From positions 1 to 64,000 of the IMG/VR virus record IMGVR_UViG_3300035498_000265: a stretch of DNA of 64,000 nt; one strand, given 5' to 3'. Position numbers and translations under genes: made by a program. This document shows positions 7,677 through 50,654 of the stretch, piece after piece. Origin of the DNA: a virus. Taxonomy: Duplodnaviria > Heunggongvirae > Uroviricota > Caudoviricetes > Crassvirales. How positions within the stretch are numbered: position 1 is the stretch's first letter; every line of letters starts with the position of its first letter. Under the pieces are notes generated by a model that was not told the DNA's origin, did no database searches, and worked only from the letters and a program-made list of their open reading frames with translations.

Positions 7677-9954
7677 TTACCTTAGACTCTTTTTGCTAAA
7701 TTTACTGTGTCTATCATCATAATTCTTCTTAAAGAATGGGTCATTACCTAGGTAAGAGTTATTATTTCTTTCACTCTTTTCTCTACTTACTTCACCATTA
7801 TATAGTATTAGCTTATCTTCTCTAAGCAGCATTAACATACCCATAGCCGATATTCTATCAAAGTTGCCCATAGGGTTATAGCCAATTAACTCTTTAATAA
7901 GAGCCCTATTCCTTATTGAATATAGATTATAGACCTAAGTCTCAGTAGGCTCACCATCAACTTCAGTAGTAATTGTAACTGGCTTTAATAGCCAAGACCT
8001 AAGTAAGTTTTTAGCAAAAGCATTAACAGGAGCAGTAGCAGTAGTACCCTTAGCTGTATTACCATAGCCAGGTCTAGCTAGTTGCTTATCCCTAAGAAAC
8101 TCCAATACATCTGTTAAATAGTGCAGGCAGTTCATCTTTGAAAAATGGCTAAATAAGCCCTTTTTATTCTGCTCATAGTTTAGCTAGCCATTATAAAATA
8201 CACACAGCCTTCTACATATTTCAAAGTAATCCTCTGCATACATAGGCCTACCTGTGTATTCTGCTACTATTTTATCAGTCCATAAGTCTAATACAAATAT
8301 AGAACCTAGAGACATAGTATTAGCTTCATCATTATCATAGGGGTCAGCACCCAAGATATACCTAGAACTAAATGGCTTATTAGTCTTTTTATCTATCTCA
8401 GGCATCTAGAATATCTCTATAGAGCCCTCTATCTTATTATCTTTATGAGGGAAGTCCCTTATAGGATTCTTAGAAGTAGGGTTAAACTCTACTGTACCCC
8501 CTTTAGTTATTATAAGTTCACCAGTGTATACATCATCAAATTCAGCGGGATTACTATCTATCTAAGCTAACCTCTCTGACAAATCAGTAACTGGGAACAT
8601 ATTAACCCCAGTCTTAACGATAGCTTCTGCTGGAGTTATAGGAACCTCTGCTATAGTTTTAATGATAGTGTTAGAGTCTGTAGAGTTATACTTTACTCTA
8701 TATCTATTCATGAGTATCTCTAGTAAAGCTTTAATTACATCAGATACACCATCCTAATTATAGCAGCCTTTCCTATTAACATAACCAGGAAAGAAAAATA
8801 CAAACTCTTTCTAGCCCTAGTTATTCTTATCAAAGACATTAGGTAAGGGGTACATATTATAACCCCTAGGATTATACATGATTTCCTGAGCACCAGCAAA
8901 GTCTGACTCATTATCACCAGCAGTACCCTGTAGATACATTAGACCAAATACATAATCACCTTCCTATACTGAGGGAAGCATAACATTGTATAGGTCAATT
9001 AACCTAGGGAAAGTACCAAATTCCTCTACACCAATAAAAGCAGCCCTCTTACCTCTAAGTTTAGATTCATCATCCTTTGATGATACCCCTAGAACCTAAT
9101 TTAAAGTGCCCTTCTCAATGTCTAAATCAGCGTCTTTATAACCCATAGTCCAGGTCATATCCTATATAGCACTCTTTAATCTTTTCCTAGGAAACTAAGT
9201 ATATTGAGCACAGAAGTTTGCCATAGACACAAACTTATTAAGAACACCGTCCTTGATTAGATATTCTTTCTGATAGGCAGTTGCTAATGAGGTTATACTA
9301 TTGCTGGCTATTTTATTCTCACCTAATATAAAATTATGAGTTAGTACAGAGGCCATACTATATGACTTTGATTTACCCCTAGCAGCTAACTCAGCACCAT
9401 GATTACCACCTAAGAATTTATTATATAGACCACCATTTCTAGCCTAATCCATATAATGGAATCTCCAATATATTCCTTCCCAAAACTCAGGGAAGTCTAT
9501 AACCCTATCAGCCTATTTAGTACCTTTCCTAATCTTAGATTGAATAATAGGACAATAGTTTAAATAGAAATAAAGTAAACCTGGAACCCATTCACCATCT
9601 GAAGGTCTAACATAGCCATCCCAACACCTCCTTACTTCTTCTCTAATCCACTTACCAAATTCACTATTAGGATTAGCATTAGGTCTTAGATTAGTGAAAC
9701 TACCATACTTCTTATAATGAAGAGCGGTAGGTCTAAAGTAATCCATATCCTATAATATGTGAGGATTTGCTAGGTCTACTATAATCCTACCTTTATCATC
9801 CTTAGGCCTATCCTTAGCATATTGTCTATCAGGAGAAATTAATCTCCTGATAAACTCAACATTATTTATTGTATCAAACAACTAATCCTAAACTTCTTGA
9901 GGAATATCCTTTAGAAGTTCATCAGTTATTGGTGTTTGATATTGGTTCATTATC
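7677..9954 (-). CDS. Terminase large subunit candidate, about 759 codons with in-frame TAGs
   Basis: Track fragments 9746, 8405, 8135 and 7871 share a frame; P-loop-like ARGKSKS near N-terminus; acidic nuclease-like C-terminal half; TAA at 7677-7679. Confidence 0.5.
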
Positions 9955-13029: not shown

Positions 13030-13242
13030 ATATAGTGTTATTTCCTAACACTAATTTCATTTACCTAATCATAAAAGTCAATCACCCATTGCTCATTAGA
13101 CAACTCAAGGGTAGTAACATAAGTGTCTATTTTATTTAGTGCCATCAGGGTTTTCTTCATCAATTTCTTGATTAAAGATATTAACCATTTCATTAGTATA
13201 TCTTCTAACTTCTTCATGCTTTGAATTATATTTTAAGTGCTG

Positions 13243-13330
13243 TTGCCTCAGTAGGACTCGAACCCACACTAACTCCTTCAAAGGGAAAACGGATTTAGAG
13301 TCCGCTGTGCTACCATTACACCATGAGGCA
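13243..13330 (-). tRNA. Amber-suppressor tRNA (anticodon CTA, reads UAG); type-II body with about 21-nt variable region, U1-A72, discriminator A
   Basis: Minus-strand sequence TGCCTCA-TG-GTGT-AATGGTA-GCAC-A-GCGGA-CTCTAAA-TCCGT-(21 nt variable)-GTGGG-TTCGAGT-CCTAC-TGAGGCA-A; perfect 7-bp acceptor; loop CUCUAAA has U33 and A37. Confidence 0.75.
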
Positions 13331-20215: not shown

Positions 20216-20287
20216 GCTCTTATAGTTCAACGGATAGAATGTAGATTTCCTAAATCTGAGATGATGGTTCGATTCCATCTAGGAGTA
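20216..20287 (+). tRNA. tRNA-Arg (anticodon CCT)
   Basis: Acceptor GCTCTTA/TAGGAGT (two G-U pairs), D-arm GTTC..GAAT, anticodon arm TAGAT-TTCCTAA-ATCTG, T-arm GATGG-TTCGATT-CCATC. Confidence 0.6.
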
Positions 20288-20367
20288 CAAGCATATAATT
20301 ATAGAAATAAGAATTTCAAGAATTTCAATTCTAAAGTCTCGGTATGTGAATATAGAGACTTTTATAA

Positions 20368-20441
20368 GCATCAGTAGCTCAGTTGGATAGAGCAACAGTC
20401 TTCTAAACTGTGGGTCATGAGTTCGAGTCTCATCTGATGTA
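20368..20441 (+). tRNA. tRNA-Arg (anticodon TCT), second copy
   Basis: Acceptor GCATCAG/CTGATGT, D-arm GCTC-AGTTGGATA-GAGC, anticodon arm ACAGT-CTTCTAA-ACTGT, T-arm ATGAG-TTCGAGT-CTCAT. Confidence 0.7.
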
Positions 20442-20476
20442 CAATTAACTTTAATAAACAAATCAACACAAGAGCA

Positions 20477-20794
20477 ATGAAATGTATTTTTACAGAACAA
20501 GAAGATGCTTTGATTAAGAAAATCCCTGAGAAGCATCTAGGTAATCTCTCTAAAGGCTTTAGAGAGTTAGGCGAACAACTTGGTAGAAGTCCTCAATCTA
20601 TTTCTAGTAGATATTATTATCTTAAGAAGAAGGACAAAAACCAAGGTAACTATAGTTTTATGGTTATCTCTAACAAGCAATTAATTGGTGATAGGAAAAT
20701 AGTACGAGAAAATTGTCCTATAAGACCTATTAAATCCAAAAGAACATGGTTGAAAAATATCCTCGATAGATTATTTGGCAAGAAGGATAAGTAG
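20477..20794 (+). CDS. Small basic DNA-binding-like protein (HTH/Myb-like?), 105 aa; ends at TAG with TAA 8 codons downstream
   Basis: Track ORF; stop codon TAG at 20792-20794 followed by in-frame TAA. Confidence 0.45.
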   Translation: MKCIFTEQEDALIKKIPEKHLGNLSKGFRELGEQLGRSPQSISSRYYYLKKKDKNQGNYSFMVISNKQLIGDRKIVRENCPIRPIKSKRTWLKNILDRLFGKKDK

Positions 20795-21032
20795 TTTAAA
20801 TTATGGAAAAAGTAGTAAAGGTAACTTTCCTAACCGAAGAAAGCCGAGTGTAAAGCACTCCCCCGTATAAGTCTTAAGCCGAAATACTGGCCCCTCATTA
20901 TTTAGAGGCTGGAGGTACAGTAGGAAATAGCAACATTTTTAGGGCTTTGCACTCTCCATAATAATATTAAATTACCAAATACTTATTGTCTAAGAGGTTA
21001 GATGAGCTCAGATTATTCTCTAGTATATACTA

Positions 21033-21391
21033 GGAGTATTTCTGGGCTCTATATTTGGGGTATCATGGTATTGATTGCATATGTATTAGTAGAAGAACAT
21101 GGGGAGGGCATACTCCTAAAATAGCAAACTAAATTTAAACGCAGACACTTATACTACTGCATATGATATGGCTGCTTAAGCCTATCATCGAGTAGCACTT
21201 ACTTTGGAACAGAAAGGTGCAAACACAAACTTCTACAATAATATAAGTAGAATAGATTTCTCTGTTAGATTAAATAGAGTGGTGGAAGACTTCTGGTCAA
21301 CCTTGTGAATAAAACACATTAAAATTGAAAACTATGTATAATTCTTTTATTATGAGTGTGTAAGACGAGGGTTCGACTCCCTCATACTCCA
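21033..21391 (+). ncRNA. ssrA: tmRNA (ssrA-like), about 359 nt, tag peptide A-DTYTTAYDMAA
   Basis: 5-prime GGAGTAT-TTCTGGG... pairs with 3-prime ATACTCC-A following the T-arm GAGGG-TTCGACT-CCCTC; internal frame GCA GAC ACT TAT ACT ACT GCA TAT GAT ATG GCT GCT TAA at 21141-21179; no protein ORF on either strand. Confidence 0.75.
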
Positions 21392-21421
21392 CTAAAACTC
21401 AATTAACTTAAAACCCAGATT

Positions 21422-21892
21422 ATGGAACAAGAACTTAAAATCCCAGAAGGTTGGGAATTTTCTAGAGTAGAGGGTGATAAGATTATCCTCAAAGAAGGAA
21501 GACCTAAGACATGGGAAGACTGTGTTAAAAAAGTAGGCAGTAAAAATCTTGCATATATAAGTAGTGAATCTCAAATCTTAGAGTACAGTCACAAAGAAAG
21601 AGGCTTCATTAAAGAAGCCTTTGATAGTAATCTACTTCCTAAAAAGTATGTACAGCCGATGCTAGCTTTAGCAAAGTTGCTAGTATGCTATAAGGCATGG
21701 GCTAATACTTATGTACCTGATTGGACTAACCCTACACATGATAAATATGGTGTCTGTGTAATTGAAAATAGGCTAAGGGTAGTTAAAAGTGAATTTACTA
21801 GTAAATTATTTACATTCTCCTCTGAGAGCAAATGTAAAGAGTTCCTAGCAGCATTTGAAAGCTTACTTGAACAAGCTAAGCCTTTACTATAA
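21422..21892 (+). CDS. Hypothetical 156-aa protein, paralog A of a tandem pair
   Basis: Track ORF; shares LALAKLLVCYKAW...EQAKPLL with the 22110 ORF. Confidence 0.55.
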   Translation: MEQELKIPEGWEFSRVEGDKIILKEGRPKTWEDCVKKVGSKNLAYISSESQILEYSHKERGFIKEAFDSNLLPKKYVQPMLALAKLLVCYKAWANTYVPDWTNPTHDKYGVCVIENRLRVVKSEFTSKLFTFSSESKCKEFLAAFESLLEQAKPLL

Positions 21893-29324: not shown

Positions 29325-30484
29325 GTTTAAAAGAAAGAGTACTTGGAAACCTTAAAAGGAGAAGAGATAAGCTCCTTAGTGGTGGAATTAACAGTATTCC
29401 ATCACCGTTCTTAAGGTTTAGTGATGATTTTATAGGTATAGAACAGAAGAAGTATTATGTGATTACTAGTTCTACTAAAGGAGCTAAGACTCAATTTGCT
29501 TCCTATGTATTTGTGTTTCAATCACTACTCTATGCCTATCATAATCCTGATAAATTAAGACTGAAGATATTCTATTATCCTCTGGAGGAAACCCCAGACG
29601 ATGTATTGACTAGATTCATGTCCTTTATCCTGTATACTTTATCTGGAGGCAATATAAGGATTGCTCCTACTGACTTAGAGAGTACCAAGAATGATAGACC
29701 TGTAGGTGATGAAATATTCAATCTATTAGAGAGTGAAGAATATTCAAGGATAATTGATTTCTTTGAGGAGCACGTCATATTCTCCACATCTACAAATCCT
29801 ACTGGTGTATACAATGAATGCAAGAAATATGCAGAAGAACATGGTACTGTGCATAAGAAAAAGCAGAAAATCAGAGATGAGTTTACTGGTGAAACAAAGG
29901 AAATAGATGCCTTTGATTATTATGAACAGGAAGACCCAGATGAGTATAGATTAATATTCTATGACCATGTGAGTCTAACTTCATCAGAGAGGGGTTTATC
30001 ATTAAAGCAATCTGTAGATAAACTAAGTGAGTACTTTGTACTACTTAGAAATAGATATGGATATAGTCCTGTAGTTATTCAACAGCAGGCATTTAGTGGT
30101 GAATCCCTTGATGCTTACAAGGAGCAAAAACTTAGACCTACAATAGCTAATCTAGCAGATAGTAAATATACTTCTAGAGATGCTAATGTAGTTCTAGGTT
30201 TGTTTAGCCCCTTCAAGTATGAGCTTCCAGACTACAAGGGATATGACATTACTATATTAAAAGATAATGTCAGATTCCTTGAAGTCCTTGTTAACAGGGG
30301 TGGTAGCCCAGGAGGACTAGTAGCATTATACTTTGATGGTGCTGTATGCTCCTTTAATGAGCTTCCTAGACCTAAGGAGAAAGAAGCTTTGAAGCAAATC
30401 TATGATTTCCTTATTACTACTAGAGAAAGGAAATCTATTAGGGCATTTATAGCCTATATTAGAAATTTATTTAAGAAACAGTAA
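29321..30484 (+). CDS. RecA-fold ATPase, candidate replicative (DnaB-like) helicase
   Basis: Walker A-like SSTKGAKT and Walker B-like LIFYDHVSLT in a 387-aa ORF within the replication module. Confidence 0.4.
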   Translation: MSLKERVLGNLKRRRDKLLSGGINSIPSPFLRFSDDFIGIEQKKYYVITSSTKGAKTQFASYVFVFQSLLYAYHNPDKLRLKIFYYPLEETPDDVLTRFMSFILYTLSGGNIRIAPTDLESTKNDRPVGDEIFNLLESEEYSRIIDFFEEHVIFSTSTNPTGVYNECKKYAEEHGTVHKKKQKIRDEFTGETKEIDAFDYYEQEDPDEYRLIFYDHVSLTSSERGLSLKQSVDKLSEYFVLLRNRYGYSPVVIQQQAFSGESLDAYKEQKLRPTIANLADSKYTSRDANVVLGLFSPFKYELPDYKGYDITILKDNVRFLEVLVNRGGSPGGLVALYFDGAVCSFNELPRPKEKEALKQIYDFLITTRERKSIRAFIAYIRNLFKKQ

Positions 30485-36749: not shown

Positions 36750-38102
36750 ATGTGCGGAATTTTTGGTATAATCACCCCTAAACCTAGAAAGTTTGATGCT
36801 CGAGCTTTCTGTGTTTTGGGTGTTAACAATGACTCACGAGGAGGAGACTCGTGTGGTGTTTTCATCGACAAGAGATATGAATATGGCGTTAATGAGAACA
36901 AGATGTTCTACTCATTCTTTCCTAAAAGTAAAGTGCTTAATAGTACTCAGCGATGCCAAATTGCTCTAGGGCACTGTAGGAAAGCTTCAGTAGGAGCTAT
37001 AAATGAAGCTAACGCTCAACCAGTAGTAATTAAAGATGAACTAGGTGAAGTTAAATATGTTTTAATTCACAATGGCACTATCTTGAATTATGAGGCTTTG
37101 GCTAAGAAATATATCCCTGATGTAGATATTAAAGGCATGACTGACTCACAAGTCATGGCTAGAATATTTTACCATAAAGGCTATGATGTATTAGGTGAAT
37201 ACCTTGGAGCAGGTGCCTTTGTTATGGTTGACTATAGAGGTGAAGAGCCCTTAGTTCTACTCTTTAAGGGTGAATCTAAGTCCTCTCAATACTCTGTAAC
37301 AACTAGTGTAGAAAGACCATTATACTGCTCTTATAGTCAAAATGAGTTTATCTTCTCATCTATTATGGACTACCTTAAACCCCTACGTCCTAATAGAGAA
37401 GTGCTAACTCTCTCACCTAATTATCTACTCTGTCTCAAAGATGGTAGTTTATTCATAATTAAAGAATATGATAGAAAGTCATTATGGCAGACTCGAAGTT
37501 ATACTACCTATGCTAATAACACTGCTAGTACTTATACTCCTAGTAAAGTTCTTAGTGTAGTTAGAAATAGCTACAATGACTATGATGAGTTTGGCAATGG
37601 CTACTGGGATGATGCCATAGAGATGGACACAGATGGCTTATACTATGTAGGTGCAACTCTAGCTAATGGTACTTATTGGGTAGATGCTCTTGGTTCTATC
37701 AAGAGAAGAAAACTAGCTGGTACTATAGCAGTATCCTTTTGGATGGGAGTTCTACTCTATAATAGTGCCTGCTATAACTATCTTAGGGAGTTTGCTAAGA
37801 GCTATGGGTGCTCTCAAGATAACTTAGCTCTCTCTCTTCCTGACTTAGTTCATTATTTAAGTCCTATTCCATGGAGAACTAGTGACGGGACTTGGGTAAG
37901 GTCTGACAGTGCTCTAACTAATAAGCCTGTTACTGGCAGAGTTTTATTCCCATTTACAACAGAAAGCCTATGGATTTCAGGTGGTGCAGTTAGCTACTAC
38001 ACTGAGAATGTGCCCTATAGTGACACTATAAAAATATTAAAAGACAACGAAAATTATAAAATAGACGCAGATGCCATATCAAGAACGTTTGGGAAACATT
38101 AG
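36750..38102 (+). CDS. Class-II (Ntn) glutamine amidotransferase-like protein; ends at TAG with TAA 12 codons downstream
   Basis: N-terminus MCGIFGI (Cys2 nucleophile after Met removal); 450 aa. Confidence 0.5.
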   Translation: MCGIFGIITPKPRKFDARAFCVLGVNNDSRGGDSCGVFIDKRYEYGVNENKMFYSFFPKSKVLNSTQRCQIALGHCRKASVGAINEANAQPVVIKDELGEVKYVLIHNGTILNYEALAKKYIPDVDIKGMTDSQVMARIFYHKGYDVLGEYLGAGAFVMVDYRGEEPLVLLFKGESKSSQYSVTTSVERPLYCSYSQNEFIFSSIMDYLKPLRPNREVLTLSPNYLLCLKDGSLFIIKEYDRKSLWQTRSYTTYANNTASTYTPSKVLSVVRNSYNDYDEFGNGYWDDAIEMDTDGLYYVGATLANGTYWVDALGSIKRRKLAGTIAVSFWMGVLLYNSACYNYLREFAKSYGCSQDNLALSLPDLVHYLSPIPWRTSDGTWVRSDSALTNKPVTGRVLFPFTTESLWISGGAVSYYTENVPYSDTIKILKDNENYKIDADAISRTFGKH

Positions 38103-39513
38103 GCCTCAGGGAGGAGCTGCACAAGCCTATTATCATAATGTCAGAGTAAAAATTGATAATGGTCTTGTCGGCGCAGGAGGTTTAGCTATGGAAGACTGGG
38201 CTAGAAGGCGTAATCCAATGCCAGTGAAAAAGATTCTCGAGGAAACTAGAGAGCCTATAGATGATACAGAAGGCTATGTAAGAGGTGTTGTATATACCTC
38301 AGATAAATACATAGAGTATGGCTGGTTCAAAGAATCTACAGAAAATATCCTAGTAATGGTTAGGGGTGATACTCCTTTTGGTAGAAACCTCTACTCAGGA
38401 ATATCACGAGAAGCTCTATCTAACCTTGTATTTGCTAAAGGACTAGGCTATTATATCTTACCTGGAGACTATAGTGAGAAAGACTTGAATAAGCTCACTA
38501 GAGCTATGGGTCAAGGTAAATTTCCCTATGACTTTGACAAACACTATGAGGCTGCTGACAGTTTTAACTTGTTTAAAGATGCTCAAAAGGTCTTAAATGA
38601 AGTAGAGTATCCATTATCTAAAGAACTTAAGTATACTTTCGGACTTGAGTTTGAGACATCTATGGGCTATATCCCACAAGAGATATGCTATAGAGATGGT
38701 TTAATCCCATTAAGAGATGGCTCAATCACAGGTATAGAGTATTCAACTGTAGTTCTTGAAGGTAATAGGGGCTTAAATCTTCTTAAACAACAAGTATCAA
38801 CCCTTAAAGAGTACACTACTTTCAATAAGGAATGTGCTTTGCATATTCACTTTGGTGGTTATCCAGTAGACCCTGTAAGTATTATGGCTCTTTATGGTCT
38901 TTGGTATGCAGTTGAAAGAGACCTAGAGTCAAATTTATATGTTCCTAGTGATACTTTCAGAACTAGCAAATATAAAGCTAATGGAAAGGATTACTGCAAC
39001 AAGCTAACTGGCAAAAATAGCTTTGAGCAACTATTTAGGTCTTTGACTGGACAAAGGTACTTTGGTAGTTTAGTTCAGCCACACCCTGCTGATGTTGAGA
39101 AAAGAGCTAAATGGAATATTAAAAGTAGGTATTTTGGTCTTAACCTTGTTAACATGGTATGTTATAAAGGCCCTAAGACTGTAGAATTTAGATTCCTAAG
39201 ACCTACCTTTAACTACAGAGTAATTACTCTGTGGATGTATGTTCTTAATGCTGTTCTTAGGGCTGCTGAAAGAATAGCTAATGAGTGGAGAGAAGAACAT
39301 TGTAACAATACTGAGGATATGACTTCTTATATCCTTAGTAGATGTTATGATGGCATCAAAGACTTATTAGCTAGAGCCTATGACGCAGAAACCTTCAATA
39401 AGTTAAGTAAGGAACTAGACTTATTGCAGAATGCCACTGAGCAGCAAGAGGCTAACGGAGACCATTGTGGCAGGGATACATTCTTCATAGATAATCTTCT
39501 GCATGACGATTGA
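38071..39513 (+). CDS. Amidoligase-like protein, copy 2
   Basis: CALHIHFGGYP motif analogous to HIHIGY of copy 1; 480 aa. Confidence 0.4.
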   Translation: MPYQERLGNIRPQGGAAQAYYHNVRVKIDNGLVGAGGLAMEDWARRRNPMPVKKILEETREPIDDTEGYVRGVVYTSDKYIEYGWFKESTENILVMVRGDTPFGRNLYSGISREALSNLVFAKGLGYYILPGDYSEKDLNKLTRAMGQGKFPYDFDKHYEAADSFNLFKDAQKVLNEVEYPLSKELKYTFGLEFETSMGYIPQEICYRDGLIPLRDGSITGIEYSTVVLEGNRGLNLLKQQVSTLKEYTTFNKECALHIHFGGYPVDPVSIMALYGLWYAVERDLESNLYVPSDTFRTSKYKANGKDYCNKLTGKNSFEQLFRSLTGQRYFGSLVQPHPADVEKRAKWNIKSRYFGLNLVNMVCYKGPKTVEFRFLRPTFNYRVITLWMYVLNAVLRAAERIANEWREEHCNNTEDMTSYILSRCYDGIKDLLARAYDAETFNKLSKELDLLQNATEQQEANGDHCGRDTFFIDNLLHDD

Positions 39514-50471: not shown

Positions 50472-50654
50472 ATGAGGCAATACACTCAGAGAGAGTTTAT
50501 AAAAGTAGTAAGAGCTAATGGTTTCTGTTACAAAAGAAGTAGGGGAGACCATAGCATTTATTACAATGAAAGAGGAAGACATATTAGTATTCCTAGGAAT
50601 CTCAAATGTGTAATAGCCAGAAGATTAATTAAGGAAAATAGCTTAAAAGTTTAA
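50472..50654 (+). CDS. HicA-like (YcfA family) small RNA-binding or toxin-like protein
   Basis: 60 aa with the GDHSIYYNERG...ISIP pattern characteristic of HicA. Confidence 0.4.
   Translation: MRQYTQREFIKVVRANGFCYKRSRGDHSIYYNERGRHISIPRNLKCVIARRLIKENSLKV

Follow-up and report, generated by a model that had tools for sequence, protein, structure and literature searches.

A one-piece transfer-messenger RNA gene of probable Bacteroidota type in a crAss-like phage and its relatives

Genes for transfer-messenger RNA (tmRNA, SsrA) are documented in 402 of 18,146 phage genomes (PMC9004378), and they have been proposed either to keep hijacked translation going or to tag proteins that are then recycled (PMC7162821, PMC11915505, PMC9004378). 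They take several forms. Huge phages carry tmRNA, some of them together with SmpB (PMC7162821), the tmRNA of the marine phage Melnitz is two-piece and has a glutamine riboswitch, and the tmRNA-like RNA of mycobacteriophage DS6A has no coding sequence. Among crAss-like phages, a gene is annotated in GenBank/RefSeq as 'transfer-messenger RNA, SsrA' at 29657-29960 of cr106_1 (Mahstovirus faecalis, MT774378/NC_055871). Our literature searches found no paper discussing the tmRNAs of crAss-like phages; where tmRNA was mentioned, it figured only as part of an annotation procedure, as a number or in a cited reference. The available part of the supplement files of the tmRNA database paper contains no crAss entries. 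Here we analyse such a gene in a stretch of 64,000 nucleotides from the viral record IMGVR_UViG_3300035498_000265, hereafter the window. A first-pass annotation, made from the letters alone, had recognised a phage-encoded tmRNA at this locus and considered it unusual for a virus; in view of the count given above, the huge phages and the annotated cr106_1 gene, the claim of rarity has to be abandoned. The kind of element is indeed known, since phage tmRNAs are documented and a member of the present family is already in GenBank/RefSeq; the family-level detail described below (some 40 contigs, the pseudoknot PK1 replaced by a hairpin, an intron-containing form and decayed copies) may be new.

The gene occupies 21057-21391 on the plus strand and encodes a one-piece tmRNA of a crAss-like phage, probably of Bacteroidota-type origin and inherited within one phage clade. 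ARAGORN called a tmRNA at 21057-21392 (+) with the tag ADTYTTAYDMAA*, and the covariance model RF00023 of Rfam matched 21057-21394 over the full model positions 1-374, with 73.7 bits and E = 9.6e-27. With a gathering score of 47 bits for RF00023, this match is far beyond chance, and both programs agree on the one-piece form, so that the original identification of the gene stands. No intron or permutation was detected in it: the T-loop is contiguous, the 5' half precedes the 3' half as in the standard gene, and the window has no Intron_gpI match. The mature body (21057..21391, +), delimited by ARAGORN, Rfam, the fold and identical assemblies, has 335 nt and a G+C content of 35%, and neither strand of the region carries an open reading frame (ORF) of more than 40 aa, in agreement with the first description of the locus. 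An integration-site (attP) fragment was also considered and was ruled out by the presence of a full-length gene with both halves and the tag. Five other public assemblies, originating from different samples, match the interval 21000-21421 with 100% identity, so that the tmRNA stretch is neither a product of chance nor an assembly artefact.

Comparison with the tmRNA of Bacteroides reveals the same G3·U70 pair in the acceptor stem, the discriminator A73, a T-arm of the form GGUUCGAnUCC, the UGG..UUGA motif, a long helix H2 and a U-A element at positions -5/-4 ahead of the resume codon. The tags of both follow the pattern Y-x-hydrophobic-A-A and end with a TAA stop in the loop of helix H5, and the resume contexts are alike, UAUCU-GGC-GAA-ACU in Bacteroides and UAACU-GGC-AAU-ACU in the phage family. 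On the other hand, the two RNAs share ~60% global identity, and the Bacteroides one has 395 nt against the 335 nt of the window. The Bacteroides PK1 is composed of two stems, AGUGG/CCACU and GGUAA/UUAUC (read by eye), whereas a single hairpin is present in the window, where the 3' pseudoknot domain is also reduced and variable in length. The Bacteroides tag GETNYALAA resumes at GGC; that of the window, ADTYTTAYDMAA, is longer and different and resumes at GCA. Furthermore, unlike its Bacteroides counterpart, the window tmRNA is virus-encoded and has no SmpB gene nearby, which also sets it apart from those huge phages that carry SmpB. It differs from the Melnitz tmRNA in being one-piece, with no riboswitch found in the window, and from the DS6A RNA in having an intact tag. 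The cr106_1 gene, like that of the window, lies after tRNA-Arg at the start of a rightward early/replication block and has a hairpin for PK1, and a HicA gene is common to both genomes. Compared with cr106_1 and the IMG/VR relatives, the window copy is distinguished by a tag of 12 codons (mostly 8-9 in the relatives), by another sequence in the PK1-position hairpin, by a spacer of 23 nt and one additional hairpin, and by UAU/AUA at acceptor pairs 5-7. In addition, the window genome recodes TAG, which cr106_1 and the related cr128_1 do not.

In a blastn search of a phage collection, the window tmRNA matched Crassvirales records only (Steigviridae, Asinivirinae). The family was retrieved from IMG/VR loci with two invariant blocks, including AACAGAAAGGTGCAAAC; among the retrieved loci, ARAGORN called 41 tmRNA genes, 36 of them unique, and Rfam added longer variants of ~445 nt. 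Homologues are thus carried by ~40 related viral contigs, mostly crAss-like and 90-101 kb in length, where they directly follow tRNA-Arg. Identity within the family ranges from 64 to 79%, the window copy being the most divergent and the homologue of contig L003 its nearest (79%). In GenBank, the gene is carried by cr106_1 (annotated), cr128_1 (unannotated) and Kehishuvirus 'tikkala', in which hypothetical coding sequences (CDSs) lie over the gene. Homology, together with a position behind tRNA-Arg where the early/replication block of these crAss-like genomes of ~100 kb begins, places the window gene in the cr106_1-type clade, whose nearest cultured member infects Bacteroides cellulosilyticus.

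The RNA has a complete tRNA-Ala-like domain, with a 7-bp acceptor stem, G3·U70, A73 and a T-arm, and lacks an anticodon arm. The 5' acceptor strand GGGGUAU (21057..21063, +) pairs with the 3' strand AUACUCC as G1-C, G2-C, G3·U, G4-C, U-A, A-U, U-A, the third pair, G21059·U21388, being G3·U70. This wobble is the alanine identity element for alanyl-tRNA synthetase (AlaRS), in tRNA-Ala as in tmRNA. It is kept in 36/36 relatives, and acceptor pairs 5-7 covary as CAU/AUG, CUA/UAG or UAU/AUA. The 3' strand (21384-21390) and the discriminator A21391 (A73), together 21384..21391 (+), as well as the T-arm GAGGG-UUCGACU-CCCUC (21367..21383, +), recognised by sequence and Rfam, had been read in the same way at first pass. 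Next to the 5' strand, the alignments delimit a D-loop-like segment of the tRNA-like domain, CAUGGUAUUGA (21064..21074, +), with the UGG..UUGA motif common to the phage family and Bacteroides tmRNA.

The 5' end initially proposed, GGAGUAU at 21033, and the resulting length of 359 nt had to be corrected, as ARAGORN and Rfam both begin at 21057, 24 nt downstream, which gives a body of 335 nt. A start at 21033 would give A3-U70, at the expense of the G3·U70 wobble invariant in 36/36 relatives, would move the UGG..UUGA motif out of the family register, and would rely on a heptamer that sits in an upstream hairpin without counterpart in the relatives. This leader hairpin, GAGCUCAGA...UCUGGGCUC (21004..21049, +), seen in the fold of 21000-21420, lies outside the mature tmRNA; it is imperfect, ~46 nt long, stable and self-contained, with no homologue in the relatives. 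The GGAGUAU inside it (21033-21039) is exactly complementary to the acceptor 3' strand and looks like a partial copy of the true 5' end, probably by chance, as many 7-mers could match, or as a relic. An octamer, CAUACUCC, is also found twice, in the PK1-position hairpin (21109-21116) and at the 3' end (21383-21390). The heptamer and octamer repeats may represent duplication relics, alternative precursor pairings or chance.

The RNAalifold consensus, computed from the alignment of the 36 unique family sequences, comprises 63 pairs, which form the acceptor stem, the long H2, the T-arm, H5 and further hairpins. Standard pairs are found in 98.9% of the cells, compared with 42-48% when partners are slid by 1-3 columns. 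Furthermore, 17 pairs are changed on both sides, as against 3.0 ± 1.3 in shuffled controls (0/500 reach 17) and 0-7 in slid ones. The fold is therefore strongly supported across the 36 unique copies; for the window RNA alone, the minimum free energy is -83.2 kcal/mol (z = -3.0). Helix H2, which joins the tRNA-like domain to the mRNA-like/pseudoknot domain, is formed by a 5' strand at 21075..21102 (+), taken from the consensus, and a 3' strand at 21332..21363 (+), supported by consensus fold and sequence. It has 26 pairs, 8 of which are changed on both sides, with >99% of cells paired; in the T-arm, 4/5 pairs are changed on both sides across the family and 100% of cells are paired. Helix H5 (GCUGCU/AGUAGC, 21171..21196, +), which corresponds to consensus helices 5 and 6, holds the stop codon in its loop. 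Beyond it, the hairpin GCACUU...AGGUGC of the PK2-equivalent region (21195..21220, +) is nearly invariant in the family. The hairpin CUUCUAC...GUAGAA (21230..21252, +), on the other hand, is lineage-specific and partly shared with the closest relative L003 only. In the 3' pseudoknot domain, the hairpin CUCUGUU-AGAUUA-AAUAGAG (21260..21279, +) covaries between subgroups, its variants in the relatives being CUUGCAU/AUGCAAG, CCCUGUU/AAUAGGG and UCUGCAU/AUGCAGA.

The architecture expected at first pass, a tRNA-like domain with pseudoknots, was thus recovered for the tRNA-like part, whereas PK1 is represented by one hairpin only, GGGAG-GGCAUA-CUCCU (21102..21117, +), identified in the fold. The relatives also have a single hairpin at this position, UGAUG-GAAAGA-CAUCA or AGCUG-GAAAGA-CGGCA. 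Inspection and a helix scan revealed no conserved second PK1 stem in the window or its relatives, only a hairpin of 4-5 bp with a 6-nt loop, and loop-to-tag pairings tried as second stem were dropped because they are not common to the subgroups. It appears that PK1 has been reduced to one hairpin. Since pseudoknots of the E. coli tmRNA can be replaced without loss of function and the distance from PK1 to U85 is not critical there (PMC2481249), we consider this hairpin a reduced variant and neither a defect nor a bar to membership. The region of PK2-PK4 contains several conserved or covarying hairpins, pseudoknotted pairings being inseparable from noise in an AT/GU-rich alignment; a brute-force search for conserved helices and pseudoknots was swamped by spurious G·U/A-U helices. 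With this variable pseudoknot domain, RNA length in the family extends from about 300 to 447 nt.

The tag reading frame, GCA GAC ACU UAU ACU ACU GCA UAU GAU AUG GCU GCU UAA (21141..21179, +), was assigned by ARAGORN and by homology to the relatives, and coincides with the frame first proposed. It encodes ADTYTTAYDMAA, so that tagged chains would end with A-ADTYTTAYDMAA, and its UAA stop (21177-21179) is located in the H5 loop. The single-stranded spacer before the resume codon (21118..21140, +), read from the sequence, holds U21136 (-5) and A21137 (-4) ahead of the GCA at 21141. This U-A element is also carried by the relatives (...AAUAACU-GGC) and by Bacteroides (...UUUAUCU-GGC), and the equivalent U85/A86 of E. 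coli is the main frame-setting element (PMC2481249). A short frame GCA-AAC-UAA starting at 21124 (AAAAUAGCAAAC, similar to AAAAUAGUCGCAAAC of E. coli) was also considered and was ruled out, because homology to the relatives, the U found at -5 and continuity in frame with the stop of H5 all speak for the frame called by ARAGORN.

The window frame is homologous to the G/D-N-T-(S)-Y-R-V-A-A frame of the relatives, the family tags being DNTYRVAA, GNTSYRVAA, GNTYRIAA, AKSYRMTPALMAA, GNSYRVVA and, in the window, ADTYTTAYDMAA. They have 8, 9, 12 or 13 codons and differ in length by whole codons only; the stop does not change its position, the codon being TAA or, in two copies, TGA, and an Ala-Ala C-terminus is present in all of them but one. 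The host-like pattern Y-x-hydrophobic-A-A is retained in the window as in the relatives. Such a constraint on the coding frame across the family argues that the tag is translated and that the RNA is not a mere decoy like that of DS6A. The ending MAA, which the first-pass annotation had set against the canonical LAA, is present but is a minor variant, the relatives ending in VAA, IAA, MAA or AAA. The family tags are also similar to GETNYALAA, the tag native to Bacteroides, where it acts as a strong degradation signal (bioRxiv 10.1101/2025.03.18.644028). A metagenome scan with the 5' tRNA-like sequence of the window returned two contigs only, both of an unrelated tmRNA lineage. Their tmRNAs, at 4986-5358 of L181 (JACCDW011942931.1) and 530-905 of L182 (JACCDW010323096.1), share the first 22 nt of the window RNA and carry unusually long tags of 23 residues, DEKSTMTYDDLMAFVGMDYAVAA and DEMSTMTFADLMDFVGADYAVAA, on contigs too short to be called phage or bacterial.

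Judging from its gene content, the window belongs to a crAss-like, Steigviridae-like phage. The portal protein and TerL, both on the minus strand, are 68% and 54% identical to those of cr106_1; homology to cr106_1 extends to an HKD nuclease. The plus strand carries a replication module with an SNF2/HKD nuclease-helicase, a DnaB-like helicase, NrdD, PolA, ThyX, dUTPase and UDG, followed by giant ORFs without Pfam match, as in the virion RNA polymerase (RNAP) genes of crAss phages. Of 21 tRNA genes in the window, one is a tRNA(CUA). The tmRNA heads a TAG-poor block of the plus strand, with co-oriented tRNA-Lys, tRNA-Arg(CCU) (20216-20288, +) and tRNA-Arg(UCU) (20368-20442, +) upstream, the latter two called by ARAGORN; the order tRNA-Arg then tmRNA is conserved in the relatives. 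In-frame TAGs number 12-17 per gene at 1-10 kb (-) and 10 and 32 at 52-64 kb (+), and none are present at 25.5-36 kb. When the portal protein and TerL are aligned with standard-code homologues, TAG falls on Gln at 13/31 positions, with Glu next (5). The TAG recoding assumed at first pass is thus borne out, TAG being read as Gln in the late, structural and virion-RNAP genes only. As to the tRNA(CUA) itself (13242-13330, -), ARAGORN labels it 'Pyl'; it has 89 nt and a variable arm of ~21 nt, unusual for a Gln-type suppressor. A 60-aa HicA_toxin ORF (33.9 bits, cut-off 27) is located at 50472-50651 (+) and shares 67% identity with the N-terminal portion of cr106_1 gp_13300, annotated 'mRNAse'.

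These features, all read from sequence, suggest that the tmRNA most likely supplements host trans-translation during infection by means of host SmpB, AlaRS and EF-Tu. It would be co-transcribed with the tRNA genes next to it in the early/middle, TAG-poor block; a scan for sigma-70-type promoters gave nothing convincing upstream of the tmRNA, the top match falling within the RNA. Host enzymes would trim the RNA and add the CCA tail, and host AlaRS would charge it with alanine via G3·U70 and A73. Host SmpB and EF-Tu could then bind the tmRNA and bring it to ribosomes that have stalled on reaching the 3' end of a broken mRNA. There, the ribosome would shift to the internal frame, set by the U-A at -5/-4, and append A-ADTYTTAYDMAA, yielding a product ending in ...AADTYTTAYDMAA. 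Termination at the UAA would allow the ribosome to be recycled, and the hydrophobic-Ala-Ala end would mark the truncated protein for host proteases. The benefit to the phage could lie in an added rescue capacity that frees ribosomes when infection yields many non-stop mRNAs. A phage HicA-type mRNA interferase would generate such messages, a circumstantial link that is suggestive of a need for rescue. Since crAss-like phages are among the most abundant human gut viruses, it is of interest that one of their clades carries its own ribosome-rescue RNA, presumably relying on host SmpB; a phage-borne RNA of this kind suggests that non-stop complexes in translation are a limiting factor in these infections, and the cultured Kehishuvirus relative makes the idea concretely testable.

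A more elaborate role in late infection appears doubtful. According to this proposal, the Gln-suppressor tRNA would drive read-through of host UAG stops to message 3' ends, HicA would fragment messages, and the tmRNA, with its 13-residue tag and remodelled PK1 region, would recycle the ribosomes and mark read-through or truncated host proteins with a phage degron, which might be tuned for a reading different from that of the host tag. If true, host shut-off and amino-acid recycling would both proceed through trans-translation. It is unlikely, too, that the tmRNA is there because of the recoding, as the first-pass annotation had envisaged, to free ribosomes at unsuppressed TAGs or past host TAG stops once the suppressor is expressed. 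This explanation would fit the 12-32 in-frame TAGs, mostly Gln, of the late genes, the tRNA(CUA) and the window tmRNA being the most divergent in its family; ribosome rescue, moreover, is reported to contribute to the resolution of UAG codons in RF1-deficient recoded E. coli (PMC6207430). However, homologous tmRNAs are present in cr106_1 and cr128_1, whose late genes are intact in the standard code (ORF coverage 0.90 and 0.895, respectively, with little gain when TAG is taken as sense). No suppressor tRNA was found in these two genomes, nor in the other phage loci collected by that stage of the analysis. Furthermore, with RF1 present, a ribosome at an internal TAG terminates and does not stall, and tmRNA acts where little or no mRNA lies downstream. 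Since the gene is present in standard-code relatives, it is a trait of the lineage that predates the recoding seen here and is not tied to it. A secondary specialisation might conceivably have followed in the recoded lineage.

The gene takes several other forms within the family. Variants of ~442-447 nt, above the Rfam threshold, are found at 5992-6438 of L006, 891-1337 of L012, 2149-2595 of L018 and 1503-1944 of L048; they have an insertion of ~140 nt in the pseudoknot domain and are missed by ARAGORN. In cr128_1 (MT774392.1, L183), a group I intron of ~868 nt (RF00028, 86.1 bits) interrupts the tmRNA at 7824-9140. The 5' exon ends with ...GACGAGGGUU at 8254, the 3' exon CGAAUCCCUCAUGCUCCA begins at 9123, and once spliced the two give a perfect T-arm and acceptor strand; on the opposite strand of the intron, an ORF at 8468-9028 has zf-FCS as its sole Pfam match. 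By our own count, the intron is inserted after the second base of the T-loop, which would correspond to subsite 3. An intron at subsite 3 has been reported only from the class Bacteroidia, and the longest tmRNA gene on record there has 1152 bp (PMC11915505), a maximum that the cr128_1 gene, with 1317 bp, would exceed.

Decayed copies are also observed. In Kehishuvirus sp. 'tikkala' (OQ198717.1, L002), the sequence at ~5846-6137 matches cr106_1 with 97.6% identity as far as the T-loop. From there on it diverges (…GUCCAACCAUCCCCA), and the T-stem is lost along with the 3' strand of the acceptor, which would have supplied the partner in G3·U70. This copy scores 41.7 bits with Rfam, below the threshold, is missed by ARAGORN and is overlaid by two annotated hypothetical CDSs; no 3' exon was found within 2 kb downstream. 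In L041 (~2618-2712) and L055 (~2072-2166), only the last ~95 nt remain, with the H2 3' strand, the T-arm and the acceptor 3' strand, and these 5'-truncated remnants are fused 3 nt behind a tRNA gene. The decayed copies indicate that the tmRNA is accessory and has been gained and lost within the clade. Collectively, the reduced PK1, the variable pseudoknot domain, the varied tags and the intron-split and decayed copies make this family a natural experiment in tmRNA minimisation.

Several points weigh against a tmRNA that functions in host-assisted trans-translation. PK1, the best-conserved tmRNA pseudoknot, is a mere hairpin here, and the spacer to the resume codon has 23 nt compared with ~11 nt in the relatives. 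The window tag is an outlier of its family, with no close relatives by which to judge its conservation, and the decayed copies in relatives show the gene to be dispensable. CCA is not encoded: C21392 could supply the first C, the remainder being absent from the genome, which reads ...CCA-CUA. Finally, tblastn with E. coli SmpB found no SmpB gene in the 64-kb window, which covers about two thirds of the genome (best E 2.9), so that, to function, the tmRNA would have to be compatible with the SmpB of the host; PHROGs and Pfam scans of ~35 window ORFs gave no translation factors either. The lack of an SmpB gene in the window and the reduced PK1 would equally suit a decoy or inhibitor that occupies host SmpB, AlaRS or ribosomes and blocks or diverts trans-translation without tagging, a behaviour for which there is a precedent in the coding-sequence-less DS6A RNA, which inhibits endogenous tmRNA in E. 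coli (PMC11915505). We regard this as very unlikely, as whole-codon insertions and deletions, a kept stop, the Ala-Ala end and the U-A element are unexpected for an untranslated RNA. That the gene is a host-captured relic, non-functional in the window genome and persisting by hitch-hiking, is hardly credible in spite of the decay in tikkala, L041 and L055 and the atypical PK1 region and tag of the window copy, because the acceptor with G3·U70, A73, the T-arm, H2, the open tag frame with its stop and H5 are all intact, and changes relative to the closest homologue (79%) are compensatory (acceptor UAU/AUA, T-arm) or in frame (+4 codons).

The window holds some further elements. Within the replication block, two adjacent ORFs at 36750-39510 (+) encode a class-II glutamine amidotransferase (GATase_6) and an Amidoligase_2 protein. 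At 21441-21456 (+), ~50 nt past the tmRNA 3' end, UCCCAGAAGGUUGGGA makes up a terminator-like hairpin with a U-rich tract behind it; the hairpin falls in the first codons of an ORF at 21422-21892 and might terminate a joint transcript of the tRNA and tmRNA genes. A small ORF (20477-20791, +) located between tRNA-Arg and the tmRNA has a Myb-like DNA-binding domain (24.7 bits), and its weak homologues in the relatives adjoin the tmRNA on the opposite side, which points to a local rearrangement.

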